A stretch of 64,000 bases of DNA from Alphaproteobacteria bacterium (GTDB taxonomy: Bacteria > Pseudomonadota > Alphaproteobacteria > Rs-D84). A program made the position numbers and the translations under genes. The notes under the pieces were generated by a model. It saw nothing but the letters and a program-made list of their open reading frames with translations, was not told where the DNA came from and did no database searches. Positions 3,808 through 51,210 of the stretch are shown here, one piece after another. The stretch's first letter is position 1. Every line of letters starts with the position of its first letter. The DNA lies in NCBI GenBank assembly GCA_015062495.1, contig SUUN01000002.1:71905-135904 (forward strand). Direction: 5' to 3'.

Positions 3808-3833
3808 AAATCCGGCATCCGCCGGATTTTTTA
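3808..3833. terminator. rho-independent terminator hairpin AAATCCGGCATCCGCCGGATTTTTT
   Basis: 6-bp GC-rich stem with a 4-nt loop and a T-tract. The identical 21-mer recurs at 40962-40987. Confidence 0.7.
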
Positions 3834-3887
3834 TTTACCCAGAAACACTTCGGTAAATAAAAGTTTAACGAAGTAAAAAATAAAAAC

Positions 3888-3978
3888 GTCATACCCGCGC
3901 AGGCGGGTATCTATTGCCCCGCAGGGACTGCATAAAAATGTCTGCGACGCAGTGGATTCCCGCCTTCGCGGGAATGAC
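3888..3978. repeat. pair of inverted 24-bp palindromic units flanking a 43-bp core
   Basis: Unit 1 is GTCATACCCGCGCAGGCGGGTATC (3888-3911). Unit 2 read on the reverse strand is GTCATTCCCGCGAAGGCGGGAATC (3955-3978). Each unit is itself a hairpin (CCCGC-N4-GCGGG). The A/T differences between units are compensatory within each stem. Confidence 0.5.
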
Positions 3979-4085
3979 GAGTCTTAATATTAATTGCTCT
4001 TTGCGCTTTGCTATTTGCTCTTTGTTTGCCCAACGGGCAAACTTAAATAAACTTTTATTTAACGTGGTATTCCTATCTCATATCT

Positions 4086-4120
4086 CAAAAAAATCCCGCG
4101 GTTGCGGGATTTTGTTTTTC
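4086..4120. terminator. bidirectional terminator AAAAAAATCCCGCGGTTGCGGGATTTTGTTTTT
   Basis: Hairpin with flanking A- and T-tracts, immediately downstream of the stop of the minus-strand gene ending at 4131. Confidence 0.6.
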
Positions 4121-4130
4121 CATCATCTGA

Positions 4131-4412
4131 TTATTGGATACCGACGCGGAACTGGTCGCCCCATTCGGCCACGTTTTGACCGCCAATGGTACATTTTATA
4201 TCTTCAAAACCATTTTCAACCTGGTTCTTTTTGACAACACTGCTGGTGATTAATCCGCCCGCAGTCCCCAATACAACCCCCGCAATACTGTCAGATGCCA
4301 AACGCGCGGTGTTAAATTTACCTTCTTCGTTTTTCCATACACTAACATCATCCCGGAATTTATTGTGTATCGATGTCAGTTGGCTGTACACACTGTTAAC
4401 CGTCTGGGTGGC
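4131..4412. repeat. ~280-bp inverted repeat (left copy), paired with 7219-7500
   Basis: Encodes the shared C-terminal 93 aa (ATQTVNSVYSQL...GDQFRVGIQ). The six-frame track shows identical antisense ORF products on both copies, implying nucleotide identity over at least 195 nt. Confidence 0.8.
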
Positions 4413-5609
4413 TGTAAACGTCGCAGACAAAACGCATTTTGTTTGCTCGTCATTAATTACCATGTTTGGATTGGTACATTTACATTCATTGTTTACCCAA
4501 TGCGCACCTGTGATTTTGTTGCATTCGACAATATCAGCCTTTAATTGACATTTTTTATTGCGCCATTCGTGTTGTGGGTTTTCGCATTTGCATTCGCCGT
4601 TATCCCAATATGCGCCGGTACTGGCGGCGGCCTCGCAATCACGTTTTAATTGCGCAGGATCGGTTAAAACACATCTGTCGCCATCGCGTTTATAGTTGCT
4701 GTCGGTGCAAACACATTCGCCATTATCCAGACGCAGATTCTTTGCCGCGTCACATTTACACCGGCCGCCCGACCATGTGCCACCTGATTTTACGCATTTG
4801 TTGCGAAGTGCCGCCGCGGCATTTTCGTTATTTATTGTCGCTTGAGATTTAACGCATTTCTTTTTGGTGGTATTAGGCTCGTATTTGGTTTCGCAAGAGT
4901 CTTTGATTAATGTTAAATCCCATCCGTTTGCTGCACATGTCACTGTACATTTTGCGTTGGTTTTAATGTATTCGGTGCTTTCTAATTTTCCAACAACAGA
5001 ACCAGAATTATTTGCCGCTATACAATCTTGTGAAAAGTTATAGCCGTTTGGGTGAGTTACTCCATCCTTGGTTTCACACTTGGGATTACGTGTGTCGGTC
5101 ACGCAATTGGTTTTATCCGCAGTGGGAACGAATCCAGTCTTACATTTATACATTACGCAACCATGATTGCCTGCGCCTAAGACAATACTGTCCCCTGTAG
5201 CACTTTGTATCGCGCCAGTTTTTGTGCCGTCAATTGCGAAAAATTTTTCCACATTTTGGGCCGTGCTACGTACTTCTGAATCCGAACATGTATCAGTTGG
5301 GTTGTGATTTGTCCATGTGTCATTATGACTGCCTGCATCAGAGCAATAAAAGAAACCATTTATACGATGGTTGAACGTATAATCTGGATGCTTGATGGCA
5401 ATTATTGTGCCTTCGCCACATTCGTAGTCATTGTCGCCCCAATTGCAACGATAGCACTGACCAGTTGCGTTATCTCCAACAACACCAGATGTTGATAGAA
5501 TGCTTTTATTGCTGCCACCACCGGGGCTGCATGTCGTAACCTTGCAATCTGCAAACGCATTTGTGCAAATAAGCGTTGAAAACACCACGAAAAATCCAAA
5601 TTTCTTCAT
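4131..5609 (-). CDS. secreted cysteine-rich protein with EGF-like CxC...C repeats and a conserved C-terminal glycine-zipper domain (family member A)
   Basis: 492 aa. Signal peptide MKKFGFFVVFSTLICTNAFA. About 50 Cys, with repeated C-x-C-x(5-12)-C modules (GGRCKCDAAKNLRLDNGECVCTD, GECKCENPQHEWRNKKC, NECKCTNPNMVINDEQTKC). The last 93 aa are identical to those of the 5791..7500 product. Confidence 0.8.
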   Translation of the reverse strand: MKKFGFFVVFSTLICTNAFADCKVTTCSPGGGSNKSILSTSGVVGDNATGQCYRCNWGDNDYECGEGTIIAIKHPDYTFNHRINGFFYCSDAGSHNDTWTNHNPTDTCSDSEVRSTAQNVEKFFAIDGTKTGAIQSATGDSIVLGAGNHGCVMYKCKTGFVPTADKTNCVTDTRNPKCETKDGVTHPNGYNFSQDCIAANNSGSVVGKLESTEYIKTNAKCTVTCAANGWDLTLIKDSCETKYEPNTTKKKCVKSQATINNENAAAALRNKCVKSGGTWSGGRCKCDAAKNLRLDNGECVCTDSNYKRDGDRCVLTDPAQLKRDCEAAASTGAYWDNGECKCENPQHEWRNKKCQLKADIVECNKITGAHWVNNECKCTNPNMVINDEQTKCVLSATFTATQTVNSVYSQLTSIHNKFRDDVSVWKNEEGKFNTARLASDSIAGVVLGTAGGLITSSVVKKNQVENGFEDIKCTIGGQNVAEWGDQFRVGIQ

Positions 5610-5631
5610 AAAAAATCTCCCTTGAAGCCTG

Positions 5632-5659
5632 CCTAATCCAAACGGTGGTTTGGATTAGG
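5632..5659. promoter_or_regulatory. perfect 28-bp palindrome CCTAATCCAAACGGTGGTTTGGATTAGG in the 5' leader of the minus-strand Cys-rich gene
   Basis: Sits 23 nt upstream of the ATG at 5609, just before the RBS AAGGGAGA. A 22-bp core recurs at 5744-5765 upstream of the divergent gene, in the same orientation relative to each gene. Confidence 0.55.
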
Positions 5660-5684
5660 CATATATTCGCGATTTAAAATATCC

Positions 5685-5713
5685 TTGGCACGTCCCGGAA
5701 AATATGATAAAAT
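5685..5713 (+). promoter_or_regulatory. candidate sigma70 promoter TTGGCA-17-TAAAAT for the 5791..7500 gene
   Basis: Spacing and hexamers fit consensus. The predicted start would put the downstream palindrome in the 5' UTR. Confidence 0.3.
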
Positions 5714-5743
5714 AACATGTATTAAGGATAGGAAAATTTGCTG

Positions 5744-5768
5744 AATCCAAACCACCGTTTGGATTAGG
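5744..5768. promoter_or_regulatory. second copy of the palindrome (AATCCAAACCACCGTTTGGATTAGG) in the 5' leader of the plus-strand Cys-rich gene
   Basis: Located 22 nt upstream of the ATG at 5791 and followed by CATATATAAGGGGAGA (RBS). Confidence 0.55.
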
Positions 5769-5790
5769 CATATATAAGGGGAGATAATCC

Positions 5791-7500
5791 ATGAAAAAAA
5801 TTGGTTTAATGATATTGTGCTGTATGATGATTGGCTCGACCGCATGGGGTAAGAGTGATTGCGAATATATCAAGGTTGGTACAGAAAAGTATGGATGTGA
5901 TACATCGGATTATAGTTCCAAGGAAATAGGCTATAACAGTGTTTATCAAGTGCTGGGGACGGGCTATTGCTATACTCAATCTAATACCAAAATGAGTGAT
6001 TTTACAAATAAAAAAGTAGCCTGTTACGACAAATCGGGCAGCGATGACTTGTGGACACGCGAACCCTTGAATCTTGATCCCAACAGTGTTATCAAAGATG
6101 TTAATAATTTGGTTGAGCATGCTGTATATGAAATTGCAAATTGCAAAGGTGATGGGGTGGCGGTTGCGCTGACCACTGAACAAATCCAGAATGGTGCTAA
6201 TGCAGTATGTTTTAACACCCCTGTAAAAATATCATGCCAACGGAATTATGCTTATGATGGCAATAAATGCATTCCGTTTGAGCAATGGGTGGGCGGATTT
6301 GACGATATTTGCAAGGAATCCAGTGTACAGCACGATGGCGTGGCGGATGAAAAAAAATTGAACACTGGAAATGATACGTATGTGTATTGCTATACAGAAC
6401 AGGAATTGCAAGGTATACGCGATAGGTTTTATTACGGTAATTCTTGCCTGGCAAATAAACATAAATTTAGACTTGGCAATAAATATTATAATTGCACGCC
6501 AAGCGGCTGGACCGAGCACACTTTTTCATGGTGTACAACTGGGAACGATTTCCAAAAATGTGATGGTATAGAACACTGTGTCACCGAATTATATGATAAC
6601 AGTACTCAAAAGGCAATAAAGGATGCCATCGGAACCGGTCAGTCAATGATATCTGATACAGGATCAACATATTGCCTGCGTAATGTTTGTGACAAAGGTT
6701 TTAGAAAGGTTGGCGACAAGTGTGTTGCAGAATCGGTTGTGCGTGATAATGAACAACGCGCCCGTAACGCCCAACAATCATGCGTATCAACGGGTGGTGT
6801 GTGGAAAGTAGGCACTTGTATGTGTGCGCCAGATAAAAATCTGGAACGTGATGGAAACACAAAATGTCGGTGCAAGGCAGGATATGAATACATCGATTCC
6901 AATAATAAGTCACAGGGCTGTAAAAAGATGAGTAAGACCATGATGAAAGAGGCCTGTGATGCCGCGTCCGATGCGTCATGGGATGTAAGTACAGAAACCT
7001 GTGTATGCAATATGGGTGATAACTATGTATTCAATTACGCCCAGAAAAAGTGCCTGCCGAACGATACGTATGCGGCATGTCAAAAATTGGTTGCGGCCGG
7101 GGATGCGCGTTGGGATGATACAGCCAAGGTATGTACATGTACTAAAAAGGGATTCGAATTTGACAGGGCGCAATGCGTTGAAACCGCCCAGGCAACCGCT
7201 GAACGGTTAACACGGGAAGCCACCCAGACGGTTAACAGTGTGTACAGTCAACTGACATCGATACACAATAAATTCCGGGATGATGTCAGTGTATGGAAAA
7301 ACGAAGAAGGTAAATTTAACACCGCGCGTTTGGCATCTGACAGTATTGCGGGTGTTGTATTGGGAACTGCGGGCGGATTAATCACCAGCAGTGTTGTCAA
7401 AAAGAACCAGGTTGAAAACGGTTTTGAAGATATAAAATGTACCATTGGCGGTCAAAACGTGGCCGAATGGGGCGACCAGTTCCGCGTCGGTATCCAATAA
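5791..7500 (+). CDS. secreted cysteine-rich protein with EGF-like repeats and a conserved C-terminal glycine-zipper domain (family member B)
   Basis: 569 aa. Signal peptide MKKIGLMILCCMMIGSTAWG. EGF-like modules (GTCMCAPDKNLERDGNTKCRCKAGYEY, ETCVCNMGDNYVFNYAQKKC, KVCTCTKKGFEFDRAQC). C-terminal 93 aa identical to the 4131..5609 product. Confidence 0.8.
   Translation: MKKIGLMILCCMMIGSTAWGKSDCEYIKVGTEKYGCDTSDYSSKEIGYNSVYQVLGTGYCYTQSNTKMSDFTNKKVACYDKSGSDDLWTREPLNLDPNSVIKDVNNLVEHAVYEIANCKGDGVAVALTTEQIQNGANAVCFNTPVKISCQRNYAYDGNKCIPFEQWVGGFDDICKESSVQHDGVADEKKLNTGNDTYVYCYTEQELQGIRDRFYYGNSCLANKHKFRLGNKYYNCTPSGWTEHTFSWCTTGNDFQKCDGIEHCVTELYDNSTQKAIKDAIGTGQSMISDTGSTYCLRNVCDKGFRKVGDKCVAESVVRDNEQRARNAQQSCVSTGGVWKVGTCMCAPDKNLERDGNTKCRCKAGYEYIDSNNKSQGCKKMSKTMMKEACDAASDASWDVSTETCVCNMGDNYVFNYAQKKCLPNDTYAACQKLVAAGDARWDDTAKVCTCTKKGFEFDRAQCVETAQATAERLTREATQTVNSVYSQLTSIHNKFRDDVSVWKNEEGKFNTARLASDSIAGVVLGTAGGLITSSVVKKNQVENGFEDIKCTIGGQNVAEWGDQFRVGIQ
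7219..7500. repeat. ~280-bp inverted repeat (right copy), paired with 4131-4412
   Basis: See the left-copy entry. Confidence 0.8.
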
Positions 7501-7516
7501 TCAGATGATGGAAAAA

Positions 7517-7545
7517 CAAAATCCCCCAGTCGGGGGATTTTTTTA
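7517..7545. terminator. bidirectional terminator AAAATCCCCCAGTCGGGGGATTTTTTT
   Basis: Lies between the convergent genes ending at 7500 and 7546. Member of the AAAATCCCCC-N4-GGGGGATTTTT family seen four times in the window. Confidence 0.7.
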
Positions 7546-15391: not shown

Positions 15392-16720
15392 ATGGCAAAA
15401 TTGTCTGAAAATCTTATCCGTGAAATATCGGCCAAACGTAATGAACCCGATTGGCTATTACAATGGCGTCTTGACGCATATAACGCATGGAAAGATATGA
15501 CCGAACCCCATTGGGCCGACATTGAATACAGCCCCATTGATTACGACAGTTTAAATTATTATAACGAGCCAGGCGAAATCGATAATTCTGACTTAGAATC
15601 CGTGTATGATAAAATGGGCCTGCCCGAAAATGAAAAACGCGCCCTGTTGGGAATGGCAACCGACACTGTAATCGACAGTCGTTCCGTCCACACATCATAC
15701 ACAGCCGAACTAGAAAAATTAGGGATAATATTTCTACCTTTCTCGGACGCAGTTATCAAACATCCCGACCTCGTAAAAAAATACCTGGGCACGGTCGTAC
15801 CTGCATCTGACAACTTTTTTGCAGCACTAAATGCCGCTGTATTTTCAGACGGCACATTTGTATACATTCCACCCAACACAAAATGCCCGATTGACCTGGC
15901 CAGTTATTTTAGAATAGAAACCGCAAAAATCGGACAATTTGAACGCACGCTTATCATTGCAGATGCCGGTGCCGAATTAACATATATGGAAGGCTGCAGC
16001 GCCCCCCGCCGCCCAAACCACCAACTGCACAGTGGCGTCGTTGAAATAATTGCCATGGATAACGCAACCATCAAATACGCAACCGTCCAAAATTGGTTTG
16101 CCGGCGACTTTGATGGCACGAAAAACAACGGTGGCATTTTAAACTTTGTAACCAAGCGTGGAATTTGCCACGACAACGCAAAACTACTCTGGACCCAGAT
16201 GGAGGTTGGCAGCGCCCTAACCTGGAAATACCCATCAACAATTTTGCGCGGAAACAATGCGTACAGCGATTTTTATTCATTATCAATTACACGTGGTGCT
16301 CAAATGGCCGACACCGGCACAAAAATGATACACATTGGCGACAATTCAATATCAAATATTGTCTCATATGGCATCGCACTGGATGCATCCACCCAGACAT
16401 TTCGCAGCCTGGTATCTTTTACCGGAAAAAACTGCACCAATGCATCCAAGTGTGACAGCCGCATTATCGGCAATCGCGCCACTGCAAACACACTGCCACG
16501 AATTATCCACGGCGGACAACACAACTCACAATCGCACGAGGCCACAACCGGCACCATCGACGCCGCCACCCTAAACTATCTGAACATGGCCGGCATCGAA
16601 ACCGACGCTGCAATCGCACTGATAATTGGCGCCGCCGCAACACCGGTATTATCACGTCTGCCGATGGAATTTTTGGTTGAATCAAAACAATTAATACAAA
16701 TGGCAATATCCAGGGATTAA
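15392..16720 (+). CDS. sufB: Fe-S cluster assembly protein SufB
   Basis: SufB/SufD-family beta-helix protein about 440 aa, directly upstream of sufC. Start re-picked at MAKLSENLIR. Confidence 0.8.
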   Translation: MAKLSENLIREISAKRNEPDWLLQWRLDAYNAWKDMTEPHWADIEYSPIDYDSLNYYNEPGEIDNSDLESVYDKMGLPENEKRALLGMATDTVIDSRSVHTSYTAELEKLGIIFLPFSDAVIKHPDLVKKYLGTVVPASDNFFAALNAAVFSDGTFVYIPPNTKCPIDLASYFRIETAKIGQFERTLIIADAGAELTYMEGCSAPRRPNHQLHSGVVEIIAMDNATIKYATVQNWFAGDFDGTKNNGGILNFVTKRGICHDNAKLLWTQMEVGSALTWKYPSTILRGNNAYSDFYSLSITRGAQMADTGTKMIHIGDNSISNIVSYGIALDASTQTFRSLVSFTGKNCTNASKCDSRIIGNRATANTLPRIIHGGQHNSQSHEATTGTIDAATLNYLNMAGIETDAAIALIIGAAATPVLSRLPMEFLVESKQLIQMAISRD

Positions 16721-16722
16721 AG

Positions 16723-17400
16723 ATGTTAGAAATAAAAAAATTAACTGTATTTTATGGCGACAAAGAATTACTGACCGACATCAACATGACGGTGTCTGGT
16801 GGCGAACGCCATTTAATATCGGGACACAACGGTTCAGGCAAATCAACATTGGCCCAGACAATCGCCGGCAACCCAGACTATAAAATCACATCCGGCAAAA
16901 TCGTATTCGACGGTCGCGACATAACAAACGAAAATGCAACAACACGCGCACTGCTGGGCATATTTCTGGGCGCACAGCATGTCCCCGAAATACCAGGATT
17001 AACAGTTATCAGTTTTTTAAAACACTCAATTGCGGCCCACGTTCATTTTCAAACCGGCCACGAACTGTCCATGGGCGAATTTTTGCAAAACCTGGAATCT
17101 GCACGCGAACAATTAAATATACCGCGCGAATGGCTGAACCGCAGTATTAACGTCGGCTTTTCCGGCGGCGAACGCAAACGACTGATGCTGTTACGTCTGA
17201 TACTAACAAATCCGCGTCTGGCAATTCTGGACGAACCAGATTCTGGGGCCGACAACGACACACAACAATTAATCGCTGATACTGTAAAAAATATGCCAAA
17301 CACAACGTTTATCTTTATCAGTCACCAATCATCATTCACGGATAAAATTCAACCAACCAACACTACAACTTTATCATGCGGTAAAATTGTGGTAAAATAG
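16723..17400 (+). CDS. sufC: Fe-S cluster assembly ATPase SufC
   Basis: ABC ATPase with Walker A GHNGSGKST and an ABC signature (FSGGERKR), 225 aa. Gap of 2 nt after sufB. Confidence 0.85.
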   Translation: MLEIKKLTVFYGDKELLTDINMTVSGGERHLISGHNGSGKSTLAQTIAGNPDYKITSGKIVFDGRDITNENATTRALLGIFLGAQHVPEIPGLTVISFLKHSIAAHVHFQTGHELSMGEFLQNLESAREQLNIPREWLNRSINVGFSGGERKRLMLLRLILTNPRLAILDEPDSGADNDTQQLIADTVKNMPNTTFIFISHQSSFTDKIQPTNTTTLSCGKIVVK

Positions 17401-17407
17401 GTACAAA

Positions 17408-18346
17408 ATGGGGGATAACATGAAAAAATCAACAACCAAAAAATTTTCCACATGGACATTATGGTCACCATTAAAATTTGCGGCTACATCTTTTTGCATT
17501 TTAATATCAATTGCGTTTATATACAGTTTGATTGCTGGCGCAATTTATACACCCGCGACAATTCCCCAGACACCACTAATGATATTATTGGCACTTGGCT
17601 TTATATGTTCAATCGCACTGCAAATAAACTCATTGCCACGCGCTAAAATGGACCAACTGTCTTTTATCAGCATACATAACACACAAACCGTGCTTCTTTC
17701 TGGACTATTCATTACATCTTCATATCTTTTGGCACGCTATGCACAACAAATAATGTTTTACCTGTTTATGCTGGAAACACATTTATCCGCAACATTCATC
17801 ATAACACTGACGGCATCATTACTATTTTACCTGTATTTACTGGGCCTGGCGATTGCGAATATTTACGCTAAATTCCGCCGCATACGCGAATTTAATGTTC
17901 CAACCTGGAAAATAATTTGCAGTATGCCATTTGGCTTTGCCGCGTTGTGGACACCTGGCTATATCATAAAATCAACCGCAACCAAAGCAACCACATTCAC
18001 ACCAAAATCAAAATGGATGCAACGTGCAACAAATTGGATTTGTCTACGCCCCGCCAACACAATTGCAACATTTATAGCAATTACAACATTATCCGGCTTC
18101 TTCTTTGGCTTTAATGCGGTACTATTAACATTTTCTCTGACATTAATATTTGGAATTTGGGCACTGCAACGTGGCACAAAATCATTTATCCAGGATATGC
18201 CACGCAAATACGCCACCGCATCTGTCATATTTAATGTGGCATTACTGGCTATCACAATAATATACTTTGCTATACCACACACTTCTGACCAGGATGTTCA
18301 AATAACAATATCAGACACTGAAATAACAACAATACAGCAACAATAA
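17408..18346 (+). CDS. hypothetical polytopic membrane protein (not SufD)
   Basis: 312 aa with about 8 predicted transmembrane helices. No motif recognised. Confidence 0.5.
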   Translation: MGDNMKKSTTKKFSTWTLWSPLKFAATSFCILISIAFIYSLIAGAIYTPATIPQTPLMILLALGFICSIALQINSLPRAKMDQLSFISIHNTQTVLLSGLFITSSYLLARYAQQIMFYLFMLETHLSATFIITLTASLLFYLYLLGLAIANIYAKFRRIREFNVPTWKIICSMPFGFAALWTPGYIIKSTATKATTFTPKSKWMQRATNWICLRPANTIATFIAITTLSGFFFGFNAVLLTFSLTLIFGIWALQRGTKSFIQDMPRKYATASVIFNVALLAITIIYFAIPHTSDQDVQITISDTEITTIQQQ

Positions 18347-18350
18347 AAAA

Positions 18351-18363
18351 CGCGCTATACGCA
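18351..18363 (+). repeat. 13-mer CGCGCTATACGCA, site 2 of 6, 4 nt after the stop at 18346
   Basis: Context is TAAAAAACGCGCTATACGCACGATTTATTG. Confidence 0.6.
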
Positions 18364-18395
18364 CGATTTATTGACACACAAAGGGGGAAACACAA

Positions 18396-19439
18396 ATGCA
18401 TGGAATCATTATTTTTACAGCCATCATATTCTTTCTGTGGATTGCCCGTTCCATATTAATACCAATACTGGTTGCGGGTTTTCTGTGGTATTTAATGAAT
18501 GCCATATCTGACTATTATCGTCGCGCATTGCCATACAAAACCCCATCGGACAAACATTCAAAAATTTGGTCCGTTATCTTTGATTGGGTATCATACATTG
18601 GAACACTTGCAACGGTATGCATTATCATATATTTGTTTGCGACCCAAATCCGCCCAATGTTTTCAGAACTGTTCAACGCCCTGCCCGCAATCCAGGACAG
18701 ACTAACCCAATTGGGGACATACCTATCCGACTCCGTCGGTTTGCACTTTGACACGAACATGATACCAAATATTACAAAAATAGCCGCTAACATCGGTGCA
18801 TCTGTGGCCGGCATTGCCACATCATTTGGCATGGTATTGGTATATCTGATTTTCATGTTTGTCGAACAAAGCACATTTAACAAGAAATTTACTGCAATGT
18901 TTCCAGCCAAACGCCAATCAAAAAAGTTCAGATATATTCTGGACAGTATCGACACCAACATGAAAAAGTACCTGTTTGTTAAAACCGCAATTTCTGCGAT
19001 TACCGGCGTTGCCTCATTCATATGGTTACAAATAATCGGCGTTGAATTTGCCGGCGTCTGGGCATTTATCGTATTTATCACCAGTTATATTCCAACCATT
19101 GGCGCAATTGTGGCATGTTCCCTGCCAATATTATATTCATTGGTATCTGCGCCAACCTTACAGCAACCAATTCTGACCGCCGTCGGTTTAATTTCATTGC
19201 AAATTTTATTTGGAAACATAATCGAGCCAAAATTAACCGGCAAAACATTAAACCTGTCAACATTGGCAATTCTGATAAACCTGGTTGTTTGGGGTATGAT
19301 ATGGGGCATCGCCGGCATGTTTTTCAGCGTTCCATTATTGGTCGGAATCTACATCATTTGCGCCCAGTTTGATTCCACCCGTTGGATTGCAATATTGCTG
19401 TCTGCCGACGGTCAAATCCCCGACAAAGACGAAGAATAA
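18396..19439 (+). CDS. AI-2E family transporter (PerM/YhhT/UPF0118)
   Basis: 347 aa polytopic protein with the characteristic C-terminal segment LVVWGMIWGIAGMFFSVPLL. Confidence 0.75.
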   Translation: MHGIIIFTAIIFFLWIARSILIPILVAGFLWYLMNAISDYYRRALPYKTPSDKHSKIWSVIFDWVSYIGTLATVCIIIYLFATQIRPMFSELFNALPAIQDRLTQLGTYLSDSVGLHFDTNMIPNITKIAANIGASVAGIATSFGMVLVYLIFMFVEQSTFNKKFTAMFPAKRQSKKFRYILDSIDTNMKKYLFVKTAISAITGVASFIWLQIIGVEFAGVWAFIVFITSYIPTIGAIVACSLPILYSLVSAPTLQQPILTAVGLISLQILFGNIIEPKLTGKTLNLSTLAILINLVVWGMIWGIAGMFFSVPLLVGIYIICAQFDSTRWIAILLSADGQIPDKDEE

Positions 19440-25235: not shown

Positions 25236-26768
25236 TCAGAAACGCAATCTGCCCACAATTGATATTTTGTATGACAACGTATCAAACATGCGCACGATGC
25301 TAAATTCTGTGTTACCACCAATCATATCATACGCCGACCAAACCCCAATTCGCGCCACACCGCGCATCATATACTGCGACGCAACATCGAACATAGCATC
25401 ATAATTGTATTTTATTCCCATCATTTCATATTGATACCCAACCATTACCCCACCACGCGCGTGCATTGTCCCATCTGTAACAGATTCCATTCTATAATTC
25501 GACATATCAATCCCGACAAAGGGCGCAATATAAAACGAATCGATTGGTACATACCTGTATCCAAAATCCGCCACCACATTCATTGACACAGCAGACGGAT
25601 TATTTATAACACGATTTTCATAAAACACATCACCCATATCAAAATCAAATCTTGTAACATCCACCAACCCGCGCACCCATAAATTATTTTTCATCAAATA
25701 TTTTGCATTTAAATTTAACCCATAATACACACCTGCAAAATTATCTAATTCTGTTTCATACTCAATATTTCCAACACGCATATTTATCGCAACATCCACA
25801 TCACCAATCCTGTCCACCCCACCCAGGTTTACACCATACGAATAAAAATTATCAGACCACACCAGATTTCCATCCACATAAATACCTGCATCTGTTTTAA
25901 ACAAAAATTTATCAAACGAATTAATGATTTCAATAATGTTCCCCAGAACACTTGGGTTAAATCGCACCGAACGTTTCATCGCATCACGCAACGCATCCAT
26001 ATGCGTTGCACTATCCATGTATTTCAACAAACCATCATCCGGATTCTTTGCCCGCAGATTATTCAAAAACAGCCCTGCTTTACTGTTTAAAACCTTTACA
26101 TAGTCTGTTTCACGCACACGTTTTACAAACAACCGTCCATCATCAACATATCCCACATCCGCGAACAAAGGATTATTCACATCACTTTGAAAATAAATCT
26201 GACCATTTGCCGACACATTATTAACAATCGGCACATCATACATATCTGACAAATCATCCACGACAAAAACAATATCGCCCAACAGATCTAATGCGTCCAA
26301 ATTTCTAAAATCAAAATTATTAATATCAACAATCGAATTCTGTATAACTAATTTATTCAGCACACCTGCATTTACCCCGGCATTTAAATAAATGTTATCC
26401 GCACCATCAATCATCAAAGTATATTTCACATTACTTACAATTGGATTAAAATCATTCACACCCGACACAACCTGAACAATATCTGCATCCATACCCAGAT
26501 TAAAATTTGCTGTAAAATCCCCGTGATTCAGAATTCTAAATTCACACCGTTCGCAAACTACAAAATCAGTATTAACCGAACCATTATTTATCAAATCAAT
26601 TGTTCTGTTAACATTAACAACATCTGGTTCAAATCTGATATTTTCACCAATGACGGTATCTGCGTTCAAATTGATAAAATCAGCCGTCACATCCCCCATG
26701 AACGAATCGGCACATGCCACACCATGGGACATAACAAGGAAAGCAAAAGCCAAAGCATAAAATTTCAT
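25236..26768 (-). CDS. outer-membrane beta-barrel / autotransporter-like surface protein
   Basis: 510 aa with a signal peptide. Asn/Asp/Val-rich beta-strand-like repeats. C-terminal ...SIVGRLRF with terminal Phe, an OMP sorting signal. Confidence 0.55.
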   Translation of the reverse strand: MKFYALAFAFLVMSHGVACADSFMGDVTADFINLNADTVIGENIRFEPDVVNVNRTIDLINNGSVNTDFVVCERCEFRILNHGDFTANFNLGMDADIVQVVSGVNDFNPIVSNVKYTLMIDGADNIYLNAGVNAGVLNKLVIQNSIVDINNFDFRNLDALDLLGDIVFVVDDLSDMYDVPIVNNVSANGQIYFQSDVNNPLFADVGYVDDGRLFVKRVRETDYVKVLNSKAGLFLNNLRAKNPDDGLLKYMDSATHMDALRDAMKRSVRFNPSVLGNIIEIINSFDKFLFKTDAGIYVDGNLVWSDNFYSYGVNLGGVDRIGDVDVAINMRVGNIEYETELDNFAGVYYGLNLNAKYLMKNNLWVRGLVDVTRFDFDMGDVFYENRVINNPSAVSMNVVADFGYRYVPIDSFYIAPFVGIDMSNYRMESVTDGTMHARGGVMVGYQYEMMGIKYNYDAMFDVASQYMMRGVARIGVWSAYDMIGGNTEFSIVRMFDTLSYKISIVGRLRF

Positions 26769-40961: not shown

Positions 40962-40987
40962 AAATCCGGCATCCGCCGGATTTTCTA
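40962..40987. terminator. terminator AAAATCCGGCATCCGCCGGATTTTCT (identical hairpin to 3808-3833)
   Basis: Same 21-mer hairpin as the one after pgsA. Confidence 0.7.
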
Positions 40988-41260
40988 TTCAGTGTAATAA
41001 CAATCACCTGCATATGTTCCCGAACCCGTTGTGTCACTAAAACTATTACCGGACGGTATGTAACAACTTGTAATACCACCCGTATTTTGATCCACCGTTG
41101 TTCCATATACACCACCCGACGACGGGCATCGCACACACGATGTACCACTTAAATAATACCCCGTATAACACGAATACGTCGTAGACGAAACCGCACATGT
41201 ATCTGCATACACCGACGACATGCACAACCCCACCCAAAGGGCAAATAATATCTTCTTCAT
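40985..41260 (-). CDS. small secreted cysteine-rich protein
   Basis: 91 aa. Signal peptide MKKILFALWVGLCMSSVYA. 9 Cys, Gly/Thr/Ser/Tyr-rich. Confidence 0.55.
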   Translation of the reverse strand: MKKILFALWVGLCMSSVYADTCAVSSTTYSCYTGYYLSGTSCVRCPSSGGVYGTTVDQNTGGITSCYIPSGNSFSDTTGSGTYAGDCYYTE

Positions 41261-41273
41261 ATCTTTACCCCCT

Positions 41274-41678
41274 TTACATCAAAGAAATTGCCGAACACGC
41301 CGTATTAGTGGCATTAATCAAACAACATCCTGTCCAACCTATTGACGACGAACTGTAATTAACACATTGCCACGCTTCTTCTGTTGATGTTGTAGCCTCA
41401 CACGAAGAATATTGCACCTTCGTATAGCGATGTGCAGATTCCGAATATGTTGTTTCCGCCATCCGCAGACACCGCCCACTTGCATCATTATACGTCCACC
41501 CTGTCGGACACTCCCCTTTGGTAAAGGTTTTACCATTTGTACAACAATGTGTATTCGCACACGTTGCAATACATTCCGACTTTGTTTGATTCAAAAAAAT
41601 TAACGATCCTGTCACACCAAAACAGTCATCAACAAACATTGGCAGCATACCAACACACAAAACAAAAATTTTTTTCAT
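41274..41678 (-). CDS. secreted cysteine-rich protein
   Basis: 134 aa with signal peptide and 14 Cys. Strong RBS AGGAGGA. Preceded by the conserved leader element. Confidence 0.6.
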   Translation of the reverse strand: MKKIFVLCVGMLPMFVDDCFGVTGSLIFLNQTKSECIATCANTHCCTNGKTFTKGECPTGWTYNDASGRCLRMAETTYSESAHRYTKVQYSSCEATTSTEEAWQCVNYSSSSIGWTGCCLINATNTACSAISLM

Positions 41679-48367: not shown

Positions 48368-51088
48368 TTATTCATTATCCGGGGGATATATCAAACAACT
48401 GGTATAATTATTATATCCAAATGCGCCTGATTGTGTACATTCTATTTTTGCCTTTTTACACATATTTGCACAACGCTTAAAACCAGGCGATTTATCTTCT
48501 GTACCAAAATCACATGTGGCATCAACATAGGTATTAAATTTCCCATCCTTGTTTTTCATAACCGTATAAACCTTAATATCTTCACGCCATGTTCCGTGCG
48601 CATCATTACACGCACTTCGTGCCTTGGACAAATATTCTGAATATTTTCCACGTGTTGCAGACTGATAAATCGTTCCTTCCACTGCAGTTTGATCAAACCA
48701 CCAATCCGATTCCAACGGTCGCCACACAGTTTGTCCAGACGCCACAGATTCTACATCTGTATCTGCGAAACAATCCAATTTCATTTCCACATTTGGACAT
48801 GGCAGAGTATTATTTTCGCATCCGCCACCACGCCGCCTTGATACAAGTACGTCAACCTGAATATTCGCTGGCTTTTGTTTTGCGACAAAATAACTTTCCA
48901 ATAATTTCTGTTTAGCAAAGGCTATGTCAAACTCTTTATCAAAATCCTTGTAATGTGGAGAAACTAATTCGACTTCAAATTTACATACGCGCCCTGTTAT
49001 TTGCGACCACATTTCATCAATCTTTGCCTTGGCTACAGATGTCAATCCGTTATCACTGAAAAAATCTGCTTCTGCAATAATAACCCCATCTTGGTTTGAT
49101 GTTACCGCACCGACATTATTTAACACATCCTTGATTGCCGTATTATCCGGTATTATTTGATTGGGATTCACCATCCCCTGCACCTGCGATTCTGCTGATT
49201 GCGATTGTATATTACCAACGACGTTTGACACAGACTCCTCAGAATCTGATTCTACAACAGGTTCTGTAACAGAATTTTTTAACACAATATTTGTATGTGC
49301 ATTTTCATAATCTTTCTTGTCATATTTATTTTTACCTGAATTAATCGCCAGGTTACCAATCAATGACCCTGCCGCTCCAACAACCGCAGTTATTGCTCCT
49401 GTTTTCTTTTTTTCCGCAGTCTCATCTTTTTGTTCTTGCCACATCTTGGCGTCCTGGCTATTTGGATCAGTCAACGCCCGCGCCAACGATGCATATGCAC
49501 CACCTGTTTTCCCAATCGCTACATCATCATACAATCCAGATGTTGCCGCATTCAAAATCGGTTCAGACTCAATCCCAGGTCGCATCCCCAATGCTTCTTT
49601 GCGCACCTTTAAATCATTTGCCAGCGCAACATATTCTGCATACAGTGCAATCAAGTCATTACCACCCGGCAATTCAACATCAACATCACCACCACGCACA
49701 TTTTTGCCATTACCATAACTGCATGTAAACGTGGCCAGATATGCCCGCATTGCATTTTCCGCATCTGCATACGCATCTTGTTCCGCCGCACCTGATGCCA
49801 ACATCATACCGCCAATCCCAGTTGCACCAATACCCGCTGCCCCCAACAGTTTATTTGCATCTGATTGTTCCCTGTCTTTGGCGGATTTTGCACTATCTTT
49901 TAATTTATCAATATTGTTTTGTGATTCTTGTTGCGCTTGTAAACTATTCACCTGCGGATTTTCACCCGGGACAGCAACCACGTCATCTACAGCTGTTTCG
50001 TCATCACTAACAACGGTTGTATCCTGAACATTCGTGGGCGATGTCACACCATCGTCCGTCGTACTGGCACTGTCCCCATCTTCAACTGGCGCGGCAACCA
50101 CAGCTGTATCGGTCACGGTTTCTTGTGTTGGTGTCGACGTATTTTCCGCATCAGACTGCGCGTTGTCCTCTGTCACTGGCGCAACACATGTCAGGTCTGT
50201 TTTTTCCCCATCTATAATAGTTAACTTATATTCTGCATCCATTTTTTTTACACTTTGACAATAACTGTCCGCGACACACCACCCCTGGGACACCCCCGCA
50301 GAACTCACAACCAGATACGTCCCCGCCTTGCACTTTGTAGCCACACATTTTAGCCCAGAATTATATTTTCCCGCTGTTGCGAATTGTGGCAAATCGTTTG
50401 CGGCACAATTATCACCCGGCCCAATTGTACGCACACAACTTCTTTTATCATCCGACGGTCTATAATTCTGTTTACACTCAGAAATCGAGTTGACCCACAC
50501 CATGCGGTTTGGATTTTCCTTGTATGTACATGTTTTTGTACACGAAGCCGCGTTGGAATCAGTTATCACATTTGGCGCACATTCTTGATTTTCCAAGACT
50601 GTCCCCTCAGGCGAATCGCCACATTTTCTTTCCTGACATTTACCATCTGCAAAAAATCTATTACCGTCACAACTAGCCATCAGACACCCTCTGGGCCACG
50701 CACCATCTTCAACAAAATTCCCACCTTGAACCCTGCATCTCTGCTCTGCCCCATCTTGGTACACACAATACCGCGCGCCACTAACACTTAATGTTGTTAT
50801 TTGACTTTTCTCACACCAATTTGTTTGCTGTTTTTGCCACTCATCCGGCCAACCTTTAACACATTTATAATTATCGCCATATAATGTTTGCAACTCTGCC
50901 CCATCCGCAAATGAAAAAGTTCCTTTTCTATACACCGGATTACATTCATAACTACTACCGTTATTCAAATAAAAGAATGATTTATCATCCGATGAACTAC
51001 TGGCTGCATTCACCTGTCGCCATGGTGCCGCATCACCATATGCAGCATCTAAAATCAGACAAAAAAACAACACAAACAAACAGCGCAT
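48368..51088 (-). CDS. large secreted cysteine-rich modular protein (Cys-rich N-domain, acidic T/D/V-rich linker, glycine-zipper segments, Cys-containing C-domain)
   Basis: About 906 aa from MRCLFVLFFCLILDAAYG (track start 51136 runs into the leader hairpin). About 45 Cys in the first 330 aa. Linker TDTAVVAAPVEDGDSASTTDDGVTSPTNVQDTTVVSDDETAVDDVVAV. Gly-zipper segments GAAGIGATGIGGMMLASGAA and GAITAVVGAAGSLIGNLAI. Shares a KFNT motif with the 4131/5791 C-terminal domain. Confidence 0.7.
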   Translation of the reverse strand: MRCLFVLFFCLILDAAYGDAAPWRQVNAASSSSDDKSFFYLNNGSSYECNPVYRKGTFSFADGAELQTLYGDNYKCVKGWPDEWQKQQTNWCEKSQITTLSVSGARYCVYQDGAEQRCRVQGGNFVEDGAWPRGCLMASCDGNRFFADGKCQERKCGDSPEGTVLENQECAPNVITDSNAASCTKTCTYKENPNRMVWVNSISECKQNYRPSDDKRSCVRTIGPGDNCAANDLPQFATAGKYNSGLKCVATKCKAGTYLVVSSAGVSQGWCVADSYCQSVKKMDAEYKLTIIDGEKTDLTCVAPVTEDNAQSDAENTSTPTQETVTDTAVVAAPVEDGDSASTTDDGVTSPTNVQDTTVVSDDETAVDDVVAVPGENPQVNSLQAQQESQNNIDKLKDSAKSAKDREQSDANKLLGAAGIGATGIGGMMLASGAAEQDAYADAENAMRAYLATFTCSYGNGKNVRGGDVDVELPGGNDLIALYAEYVALANDLKVRKEALGMRPGIESEPILNAATSGLYDDVAIGKTGGAYASLARALTDPNSQDAKMWQEQKDETAEKKKTGAITAVVGAAGSLIGNLAINSGKNKYDKKDYENAHTNIVLKNSVTEPVVESDSEESVSNVVGNIQSQSAESQVQGMVNPNQIIPDNTAIKDVLNNVGAVTSNQDGVIIAEADFFSDNGLTSVAKAKIDEMWSQITGRVCKFEVELVSPHYKDFDKEFDIAFAKQKLLESYFVAKQKPANIQVDVLVSRRRGGGCENNTLPCPNVEMKLDCFADTDVESVASGQTVWRPLESDWWFDQTAVEGTIYQSATRGKYSEYLSKARSACNDAHGTWREDIKVYTVMKNKDGKFNTYVDATCDFGTEDKSPGFKRCANMCKKAKIECTQSGAFGYNNYTSCLIYPPDNE

Positions 51089-51106
51089 TAATCCCCCCGT
51101 CAACAT

Positions 51107-51210
51107 CATAATAAAAAACCACTGAAAAAACATCAAGTGGTTGGAGGTTCGTTACAACTTTTCAGGAAATTGTTCGCTTTATTCAATATATTCAAGCGAC
51201 CTCCAACCCT
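51107..51210 (-). promoter_or_regulatory. conserved structured 5' leader element, copy 2
   Basis: In mRNA orientation the order is: GGGUUGGAGGUCG (51210-51198) pairing with CGAACCUCCAACC (51151-51139) around a ~46-nt loop, then hairpin CCACUUGAUGUUUUUUCAGUGG (51140-51119), then UUUUUUAUUAUG..., then RBS GGGGGGA and AUG at 51088. Stem and hairpin are conserved with copy 1; the loop sequence is different. Confidence 0.55.

Follow-up and report, generated by a model that had tools for sequence, protein, structure and literature searches.

A Divergent Gene Pair with One Promoter-Like Site Between the Genes

The window (the whole stretch of DNA analyzed here, 64 kb long) comes from an 'Alphaproteobacteria bacterium' MAG whose closest named relatives are Candidatus Enterousia, gut bacteria of the order Rs-D84 with genomes mostly smaller than 1 Mb (PMC12306168). 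Between pgsA and dnaJ it carries two divergent genes for paralogous cysteine-rich secreted proteins, both with signal peptides: p1 (4131..5609, minus strand), encoding 492 aa (MBE6456868.1), and p2 (5791..7500, plus strand), encoding 569 aa (MBE6456869.1). Searches of p1 and p2 against Pfam and NCBIfam returned only a borderline match to DUF5874. The C-terminal 93 aa of the two proteins are identical, and the conserved 3′ end of p1, which comprises this tail and a terminator (4087..4413), forms with that of p2 (7218..7544) a 327-nt inverted repeat with 97% identity; outside the tail the proteins are 54% identical or cannot be aligned. The repeat arms are the boundary context of the cassettes and lie outside the switch discussed below. 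The shared tail may be undergoing homogenization, or may serve as a 3′ boundary for cassette exchange. Further cysteine-rich secreted proteins are encoded in the window at 25236-26768, 40985-41678, and 48368-51136, with no dyad site nearby, and some of them end in C-Y-Y-x, like the switch-controlled proteins of relatives.

Both genes have a Shine-Dalgarno sequence (SD), AAGGGGAG for p2 (5776..5783, plus strand) and AAGGGAGA for p1 (5616..5623, minus strand). The intergenic region between these SD-bearing genes holds a single promoter-like site, the sigma70-like TTGGCA-17-TAAAAT with a TG extension at 5685..5713 on the plus strand, and this promoter at present faces p2, as an earlier note on this DNA had proposed. 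No promoter-like site facing p1 was found in the intergenic region. Despite this promoter-less position, which p1 shares with its homologs in two other strains (L068 and L070), p1 is under purifying selection, with dN/dS of 0.11-0.28 against those homologs.

Two Inverted Dyads Flank the Promoter

Each gene is preceded, 20-22 nt upstream of its ATG, by a 32-bp dyad. The left one, a predicted recombination site (IRL), spans 5630..5661 and reads TGCCTAATCCAAAC-GGTG-GTTTGGATTAGGCA, with 14-bp dyad arms around an asymmetric 4-bp center (5644-5647), while the right one (IRR, likewise predicted) spans 5739..5770 and reads TGCTGAATCCAAAC-CACC-GTTTGGATTAGGCA, with its center at 5753-5756. At the 28 positions of the clade consensus described below, the two arms match at 14 and 14 positions in IRL and at 12 and 14 in IRR. 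The earlier note had called 5632-5659 (CCTAATCCAAACGGTGGTTTGGATTAGG) a perfect 28-bp palindrome; its 12-bp arms are real and extend to 14 bp, but the GGTG that they flank is not palindromic. Exactly two copies of the 22-nt core AATCCAAACCACCGTTTGGATT are present in the 64 kb, one per strand (5635-5656, minus strand; 5744-5765, plus strand), where 100 shuffles predict no copy by chance. This bears out the note's second copy, which is exact and inverted relative to the first, as well as its observations that the center is the same in each gene's own direction (CACC for both) and that the 28-bp element lies 22 nt from both start codons (ATG at 5791 on the plus strand and at 5609 on the minus strand). 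Its placement of the dyads between promoter and ribosome binding site applies to the plus-strand gene and not to the minus-strand gene, for which no promoter-like site was found.

The central dinucleotide is non-palindromic, AC in IRR and GT in IRL. Because the one complements the other, the two sites are inverted. Their centers are 109 bp apart, and the predicted invertible segment (5646..5754) accordingly consists of the two inner half-sites and a 77-bp spacer.

Variation in the pgsA-dnaJ Slot

In related strains the pgsA-dnaJ slot holds one gene or two divergent genes, depending on the strain, and its occupants include p2, P0002, P0003, a P0013-like gene, and geneX. In single-gene strains the pgsA terminator is followed by the same promoter, one site, and the gene. 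In L001, L005, and L007 the single gene is preceded by the same promoter module, and a lone site lies between promoter and SD in these three strains and in L020, which hints at a second, partner-independent role of the site. In L007, the promoter and site of the window are joined to a leader and gene of the p1 type, so that the site appears as the junction at which cassettes have been exchanged. Furthermore, dS between p1 and the L007 gene is 0.30, versus 0.9-1.2 for the flanking pgsA and dnaJ, which implies a recent move of the cassette between lineages.

Also within the slot, single-gene strains lack ~250 nt (~3833-4086) that in the window separate the pgsA terminator from the 3′ end of p1 and contain a MITE-like inverted pair, GTCATACCCGCGCAGGCGGGTAT ... 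ATTCCCGCCTTCGCGGGAATGAC, at 3888-3978. Several metagenome contigs end at 3903-3921. Similar palindromes of the form GTCATTCC...GGAATCC / ...GGGATGAC are scattered among the loci L026, L030, L032, L041, L043, L049, L069, and L070.

A Family of Precisely Spaced Site Pairs in Related Genomes

A scan with the pattern CYAAACNNNNGTTTGGRTTAGGCA, using one genome per species, matched 41 stretches. Alphaproteobacteria/Rickettsiales MAGs, Candidatus Enterousia among them, account for nearly all of these, with at most ~10 stretches of this strict pattern in any one MAG (CAXHMP01). Scanning all fetched non-redundant loci (401 kb) with the 28-position consensus gave 85 sites, which form 34 pairs in Candidatus Enterousia and other relatives of the order Rs-D84. 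Center-to-center spacing is 83-85 bp in 30 of the 34 pairs and 96 bp in one. The 109-bp spacing is found at the window locus, in its variants L062 and L063, and in the later-added L068 and L070, while L069 has 119 bp; the locus thus departs from a strongly preferred 85 bp. Central dinucleotides are inverted between partners in 29/34 pairs, palindromic in three, and direct in two (L062 and L063). The complementarity holds even where the neighboring bases differ, as with GGAC vs. GTCG at loci with start-codon cargo. Among 77 distinct sites, the invariant bases are the AA and TT of AAAC-N4-GTTT.

Sites are found on both sides of a promoter, a terminator, or a start codon, some of them within coding sequence, and the pairs precede secreted-protein and glycosyltransferase genes. 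The earlier note had allowed that the element might turn out to be a dispersed REP with no association with its gene family; the sites are indeed dispersed in relatives and not tied to one gene family, but precisely spaced pairs are not REPs. In L029 (4769-5627), the gene for a switch-controlled 201-aa cysteine-rich secreted protein sits between two genes provisionally assigned as sufB and sufC, which are directly adjacent in the window (16704-16723); such switch-plus-gene units act as small lineage-specific islands.

Cargo Between the Sites and Opposite States at Homologous Loci

Paired sites enclose one of three recurrent kinds of cargo: a promoter; an SD with a start codon and the beginning of a signal peptide; and a terminator. 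Promoter cargo is exemplified by L064/L049, where TTGACA-18-TAAACT points toward the gene (one orientation in all four samples for L064), and by L021, where TTGACA-17-TATGAT points away from a secreted-protein gene. In L044 two divergent genes, one of which belongs to the p1/p2 family, flank a promoter that faces the left gene and has a -10 region, GAAAAATATGATAAAAT, in common with the window promoter.

In the start-codon cargo, an SD, a start codon, and ~14 signal-peptide codons face away from a start-less cysteine-rich ORF, and a strong promoter located outside the pair is directed at this ORF. In silico inversion produced an in-frame fusion at 7/7 such loci, with ORFs of 116-251 aa, and an unbiased scan of all pairs yielded 11 in-frame fusions upon inversion. 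After inversion the site itself would be translated within the signal peptide as P-N-x-G-L-G/A. Purifying selection acts even on ORFs that no assembly shows in the ON state: comparison of the L045 ORF with its 60%-identical ortholog in L056, both OFF, gives a dN/dS of 0.25. In the corresponding annotations, P0014 (L045, 3885-4606) and P0015 (L056, 287-1006), the called ATG lies in the recombination site (MPNPNGGL..., MPNLIGGL...), and the calls have neither an SD nor a signal peptide; they are probably mis-called OFF-state genes. Searching a protein database with the ON-state fusion protein of L045 recovered only such OFF-state calls, beginning MPNPNGGL or MPNLIGGL.

Terminator cargo is found in L048, in which a 12/12 promoter is followed by two terminator-like hairpins on the gene's strand, an SD, and the gene. 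In L047, from the same genome, the module is identical at 49/53 nt and reversed, with its terminators on the opposite strand. Between these two loci the inner half-sites move with the spacer and the outer half-sites and centers stay, which is the behavior predicted by crossover at the site center. Likewise, a glycosyltransferase gene in L022 is ON, with its start codon inside the segment and an ORF of 407 aa that reads through the site, and its counterpart in L024 is OFF and reads through only after in silico inversion. The flanks of these two loci are colinear (89/120 and 69/120 positions align), and their spacers share 33 identities as reverse complement vs. 13 in direct alignment. Hence, homologous loci occur in opposite states in both L022/L024 and L047/L048.

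A Candidate Enzyme Encoded in the Clade

The 64-kb window yielded no recombinase gene in a motif search or in tblastn with XerD, Hin, and FimB. In relatives, a 212-aa serine recombinase is encoded in L014, 4 kb away from a site, and L064 encodes another, P0060, whose gene is 5 kb from the L064/L049 site pair. Against the NCBIfam equivalog NF009949 ('master DNA invertase Mpi family serine-type recombinase'), which has a cut-off of 272, they score 302.7 and 308.6 bits, respectively. Mpi homologs at 73-93% identity are present in many Alphaproteobacteria MAGs, and one JGI sample contains both P0060 and the window's strain. Accession numbers did not tie an Mpi gene to the window's MAG: the nearest named Mpi homolog, MBE6459926, is ~3,000 accessions away from p2 (MBE6456869). 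From these sequence data, an Mpi-family invertase encoded in the clade is a candidate enzyme for the sites of the window. The Mpi-family invertase gene of L064 also has a reverse-transcriptase gene (RVT_1, 341 aa; 17479-18504) ~7 kb away, beside several small unannotated ORFs; this gene could belong to a retron, DGR, or group II intron.

The crossover sites of small serine recombinases are usually dyads of 12-bp half-sites around a short asymmetric center. The repeat of Bacteroides Mpi is given as ARACGTTCGTN (PMC8375218), and in B. intestinalis repeats of the sequence GTTCGTTTAA flank promoters of 183-186 bp (PMC8375218). Combined, the two give AAAC-GTTC-GTTT, the layout of the AAAC-N4-GTTT core found here, a likeness to the Bacteroides Mpi repeats that concerns layout and inner bases only.

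Proposed Inversion and the Orientations Seen in Assemblies

That the dyads serve as invertase recombination sites in the clade is, in our judgment, quite probable. For the window locus itself we favor, with somewhat less confidence, an Mpi-type inverton, active or recently active, whose one promoter can be turned toward either of two surface-protein genes. Each 28-32-bp dyad would be bound by a dimer of an Mpi-family serine invertase whose gene would lie elsewhere in the genome, with contacts to the 12-14-bp half-sites around the 4-bp center. The dimers at IRL and IRR would then come together in a synapse, cut the DNA at the central GT/AC dinucleotide, and rejoin it after rotation, thereby flipping the 109-bp segment with its sole promoter. 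In the present orientation this promoter would drive p2. After inversion its -10 element would lie 25 nt from IRL, as it now lies 25 nt from IRR, and it would drive p1 with a leader as long as that of p2. Expression would thus be mutually exclusive, so that one of the two cysteine-rich surface proteins is displayed at a time, a form of phase or antigenic variation. The identity of the enzyme as Mpi, its cutting at the central dinucleotide, and the flipping of the 109-bp pair are parts of this scheme that we infer.

Among ~20 contigs with p1, p2, or close variants, none has the flipped state, although many of these come from apparently one JGI sample series (Ga01879xx, Ga02163xx) and are probably not independent. 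In strains L063, L068, L069, and L070 the promoter likewise points toward the dnaJ-side gene. A consensus assembly displays the majority state only; B. fragilis genomes likewise can display only one orientation at a switch that is active (PMC3090145). In a metagenome scan with the promoter core, the two matches listed were AT-rich chance ones. The site center changes between strains with the flanks unchanged, from CACC in the window to GGTG in L062 and GGTC in L063. In the latter two sister strains the centers are in direct orientation, so that a serine invertase could not invert the segment, which would be at best locked. Contigs L011 and L061 end exactly at site centers, which is suggestive of heterogeneity, but a short repeat with low coverage explains these ends equally well. 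A recombinase synapse would have to close a very tight loop of 85-109 bp, which counts against an inverton, as do the non-canonical spacing and the single orientation seen at this locus.

Alternative Explanations

The earlier note had put forward a dimeric-regulator operator co-regulating both genes. It was right about the dyad architecture, with 12-bp half-sites and a 4-bp spacer, but the evidence favors an Mpi-family invertase as the protein, the predicted outcome is mutually exclusive expression rather than co-regulation, and its suggestion of MucR as the binder found no support. In its general form, such a model would have a dimeric or tetrameric transcription factor loop the 85-109-bp DNA and repress or co-regulate both genes without rearrangement, which we think improbable. 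Dyad symmetry, degenerate half-sites, and the lack of covariation do fit a protein-binding site, a fixed 85-bp spacing (~8 helical turns) suits a repression loop, and both the lone sites of single-gene strains, between promoter and SD, and the invariant orientation of the window locus among assemblies are what operators would show. However, operators leave unexplained why modules of SD, ATG, and signal peptide face away, at 11 or more loci, from ORFs to which inversion would fuse them in frame, why homologous loci have modules in opposite orientation with breakpoints at the site centers, and why p1 lacks any promoter. Moreover, 32 bp is long for a transcription-factor operator, and the best-matching known sites are invertase targets. 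Membership in an operator or regulon class was rejected, given that the sites keep no fixed position, flanking promoters, terminators, and start codons alike, and that modules are flipped between homologous loci.

Alternatively, the site could have been copied with an ancestral 5′ leader in an inverted gene duplication, leaving a static pair (a locked or decayed switch) in which p1 would be a silent cassette used for occasional homologous exchange only. This seems to us unlikely, though worth a little more weight than an operator. The leader, signal peptide, and 3′ ends were duplicated together with the site, the single-gene arrangement with its promoter beside the pgsA terminator looks ancestral, the spacing of 109 bp is non-canonical, the direct centers of L062 and L063 would fit a locked pair, cassettes vary between strains, and the low dS of p1 relative to its flanks (versus L007) implies a recent cassette transfer. 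A relic is harder to square with 22-nt cores that are perfectly identical where the adjacent leader has diverged to 78%, with an intact 492-aa ORF for p1 that has stayed under selection in a promoter-less position in three strains, and with centers that are inverted in 4/5 two-gene strains.

We consider it very improbable that the dyads act as a 5′-UTR RNA hairpin, as the earlier note had also proposed, and control mRNA stability or translation in this way, or that they are a REP/REPIN-type mobile palindrome doublet. As RNA, the dyads would fold stably (-15.3 and -23.1 kcal/mol, with z-scores of -5.3 and -6.1), and the site adjoins the SD at many genes. A conserved hairpin nevertheless did not survive the covariation test: across the 77 distinct sites there is 1 compensatory change vs. 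260 broken and 77 G.T pairs, the full 14-bp stem is kept in 4/77, and 22/77 have at most one pair next to the center. The pairing is thus not conserved, and the two-fold symmetry is that of a dimeric protein's DNA site. Additionally, the center flips between strains with flanks unchanged, and many sites lie upstream of the promoter or within coding sequence. Rfam offers no real match, since only tRNAs reached the gathering score and the matches at the locus were plant miRNA precursors far below threshold. Under the invertible-promoter reading, the transcript of the gene that is ON would still fold into the hairpin, which could have a side effect. For a mobile palindrome one may cite the dispersed copies, the contigs that break at some of them, and the resemblance of the pair to a REPIN, an inverted doublet of ~100 bp; on the other hand, the spacers are locus-specific functional cargo with no conserved mobile unit, and copy number is low (2 in 64 kb).

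Several other identities were rejected as well. The site is too short for an integron attC, and it is symmetric. A lox/dif-type site for a tyrosine recombinase was discarded because no tyrosine recombinase was found and a 4-bp center suits a serine enzyme. A sigma54 or ECF promoter does not fit the spacing, and CcrM and CtrA motifs are absent.

Relationship to Known Invertible Systems

The sites of Salmonella Hin (hix) and of phage Gin (gix) and Cin (cix) are dyads of ~12-bp half-sites with a short asymmetric center that sets polarity. In Hin-type systems two inverted sites flank a segment, which in the case of Hin carries a promoter. The hix sites have a 2-bp center and bound a segment of ~1 kb, inversion needs an enhancer and Fis, the invertase gene lies inside the segment, and there is one locus per genome. 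In Mycoplasma, the vpma, vsp, and vsa systems reside in small genomes and comprise families of surface-protein genes, each with a short 5′ recombination site, in which inversion brings a single promoter or expression site before otherwise silent genes. The vsa coding sequences carry the site at their signal-peptide end, in which they resemble the start-codon modules of the relatives studied here. These Mycoplasma systems differ in their tyrosine recombinases (Xer1, HvsR), multi-gene clusters, large inversions, and unrelated phylum. The fimS element of E. coli resembles the switch proposed for the window locus in being a short invertible promoter element for a phase-variable surface structure. 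It differs in that it is 314 bp long, has 9-bp repeats, and turns a single gene ON or OFF, and its enzymes are the tyrosine recombinases FimB and FimE, encoded next door.

Another close parallel is Mpi (FinA) of B. fragilis with its fin regions, in which many dispersed promoter segments, each with conserved inverted repeats, share a single serine 'master' invertase. There the targets are capsular polysaccharide loci, so that surface structures are concerned in both systems, and the clade recombinase passes the Mpi equivalog cut-off. The AAAC-N4-GTTT layout of the core resembles that of the Bacteroides repeats (PMC8375218). The host here is a reduced-genome alphaproteobacterium rather than a member of the Bacteroidales, and the segments measure 85 bp (109 bp in the window) vs. 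183-186 bp in B. intestinalis. Unlike those of Bacteroides Mpi, the sites are long dyads with arms of up to 14 bp, and the cargo also includes terminators and start-codon/signal-peptide modules. In the window, the promoter sits between two divergent genes as a toggle, its inversion being predicted from sequence, in contrast to the ON/OFF control of single operons in Bacteroides. The kind of system, an invertible promoter under a master serine invertase, is already known; the variation lies in the host, the segment size of 85 bp, the long dyads that form the sites, the three types of cargo, and the toggle between two genes. Our literature search found no report linking Mpi-type invertases or invertons to Alphaproteobacteria or Rs-D84.

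A broader proposal, to which we give an even chance, is that in Candidatus Enterousia and its Rs-D84 relatives one Mpi-family invertase flips many precisely 85-bp cassettes genome-wide, with three interchangeable kinds of cargo. If so, the window would hold a two-gene toggle version of a clade-wide phase-variation system, and Mpi-type global phase variation, so far a hallmark of the Bacteroidales, would extend to uncultured reduced-genome gut Alphaproteobacteria, in parallel with the surface-variation strategy of mycoplasmas. The inversions would be among the shortest programmed ones known, implying a synapse that closes an 85-bp DNA loop. Combined with modular cargo, the fixed 85-bp size would make a compact, well-defined recombination substrate, reusable as a very small genetic switch. 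In the start-codon kind of cargo, the recombination site would be translated as part of the signal peptide (PN-x-GLG/A), and one sequence would thus serve both for recombination and for encoding a signal peptide. As regards annotation, ORF calls that begin 'MPNPNGGL...' in these genomes are probably artefacts of such switches in the OFF state.

As for the window as a whole, the GC skew of the plus strand is strongly and uniformly negative throughout (cumulative -6.4 over 64 kb), which is consistent with the window lying inside one replichore.
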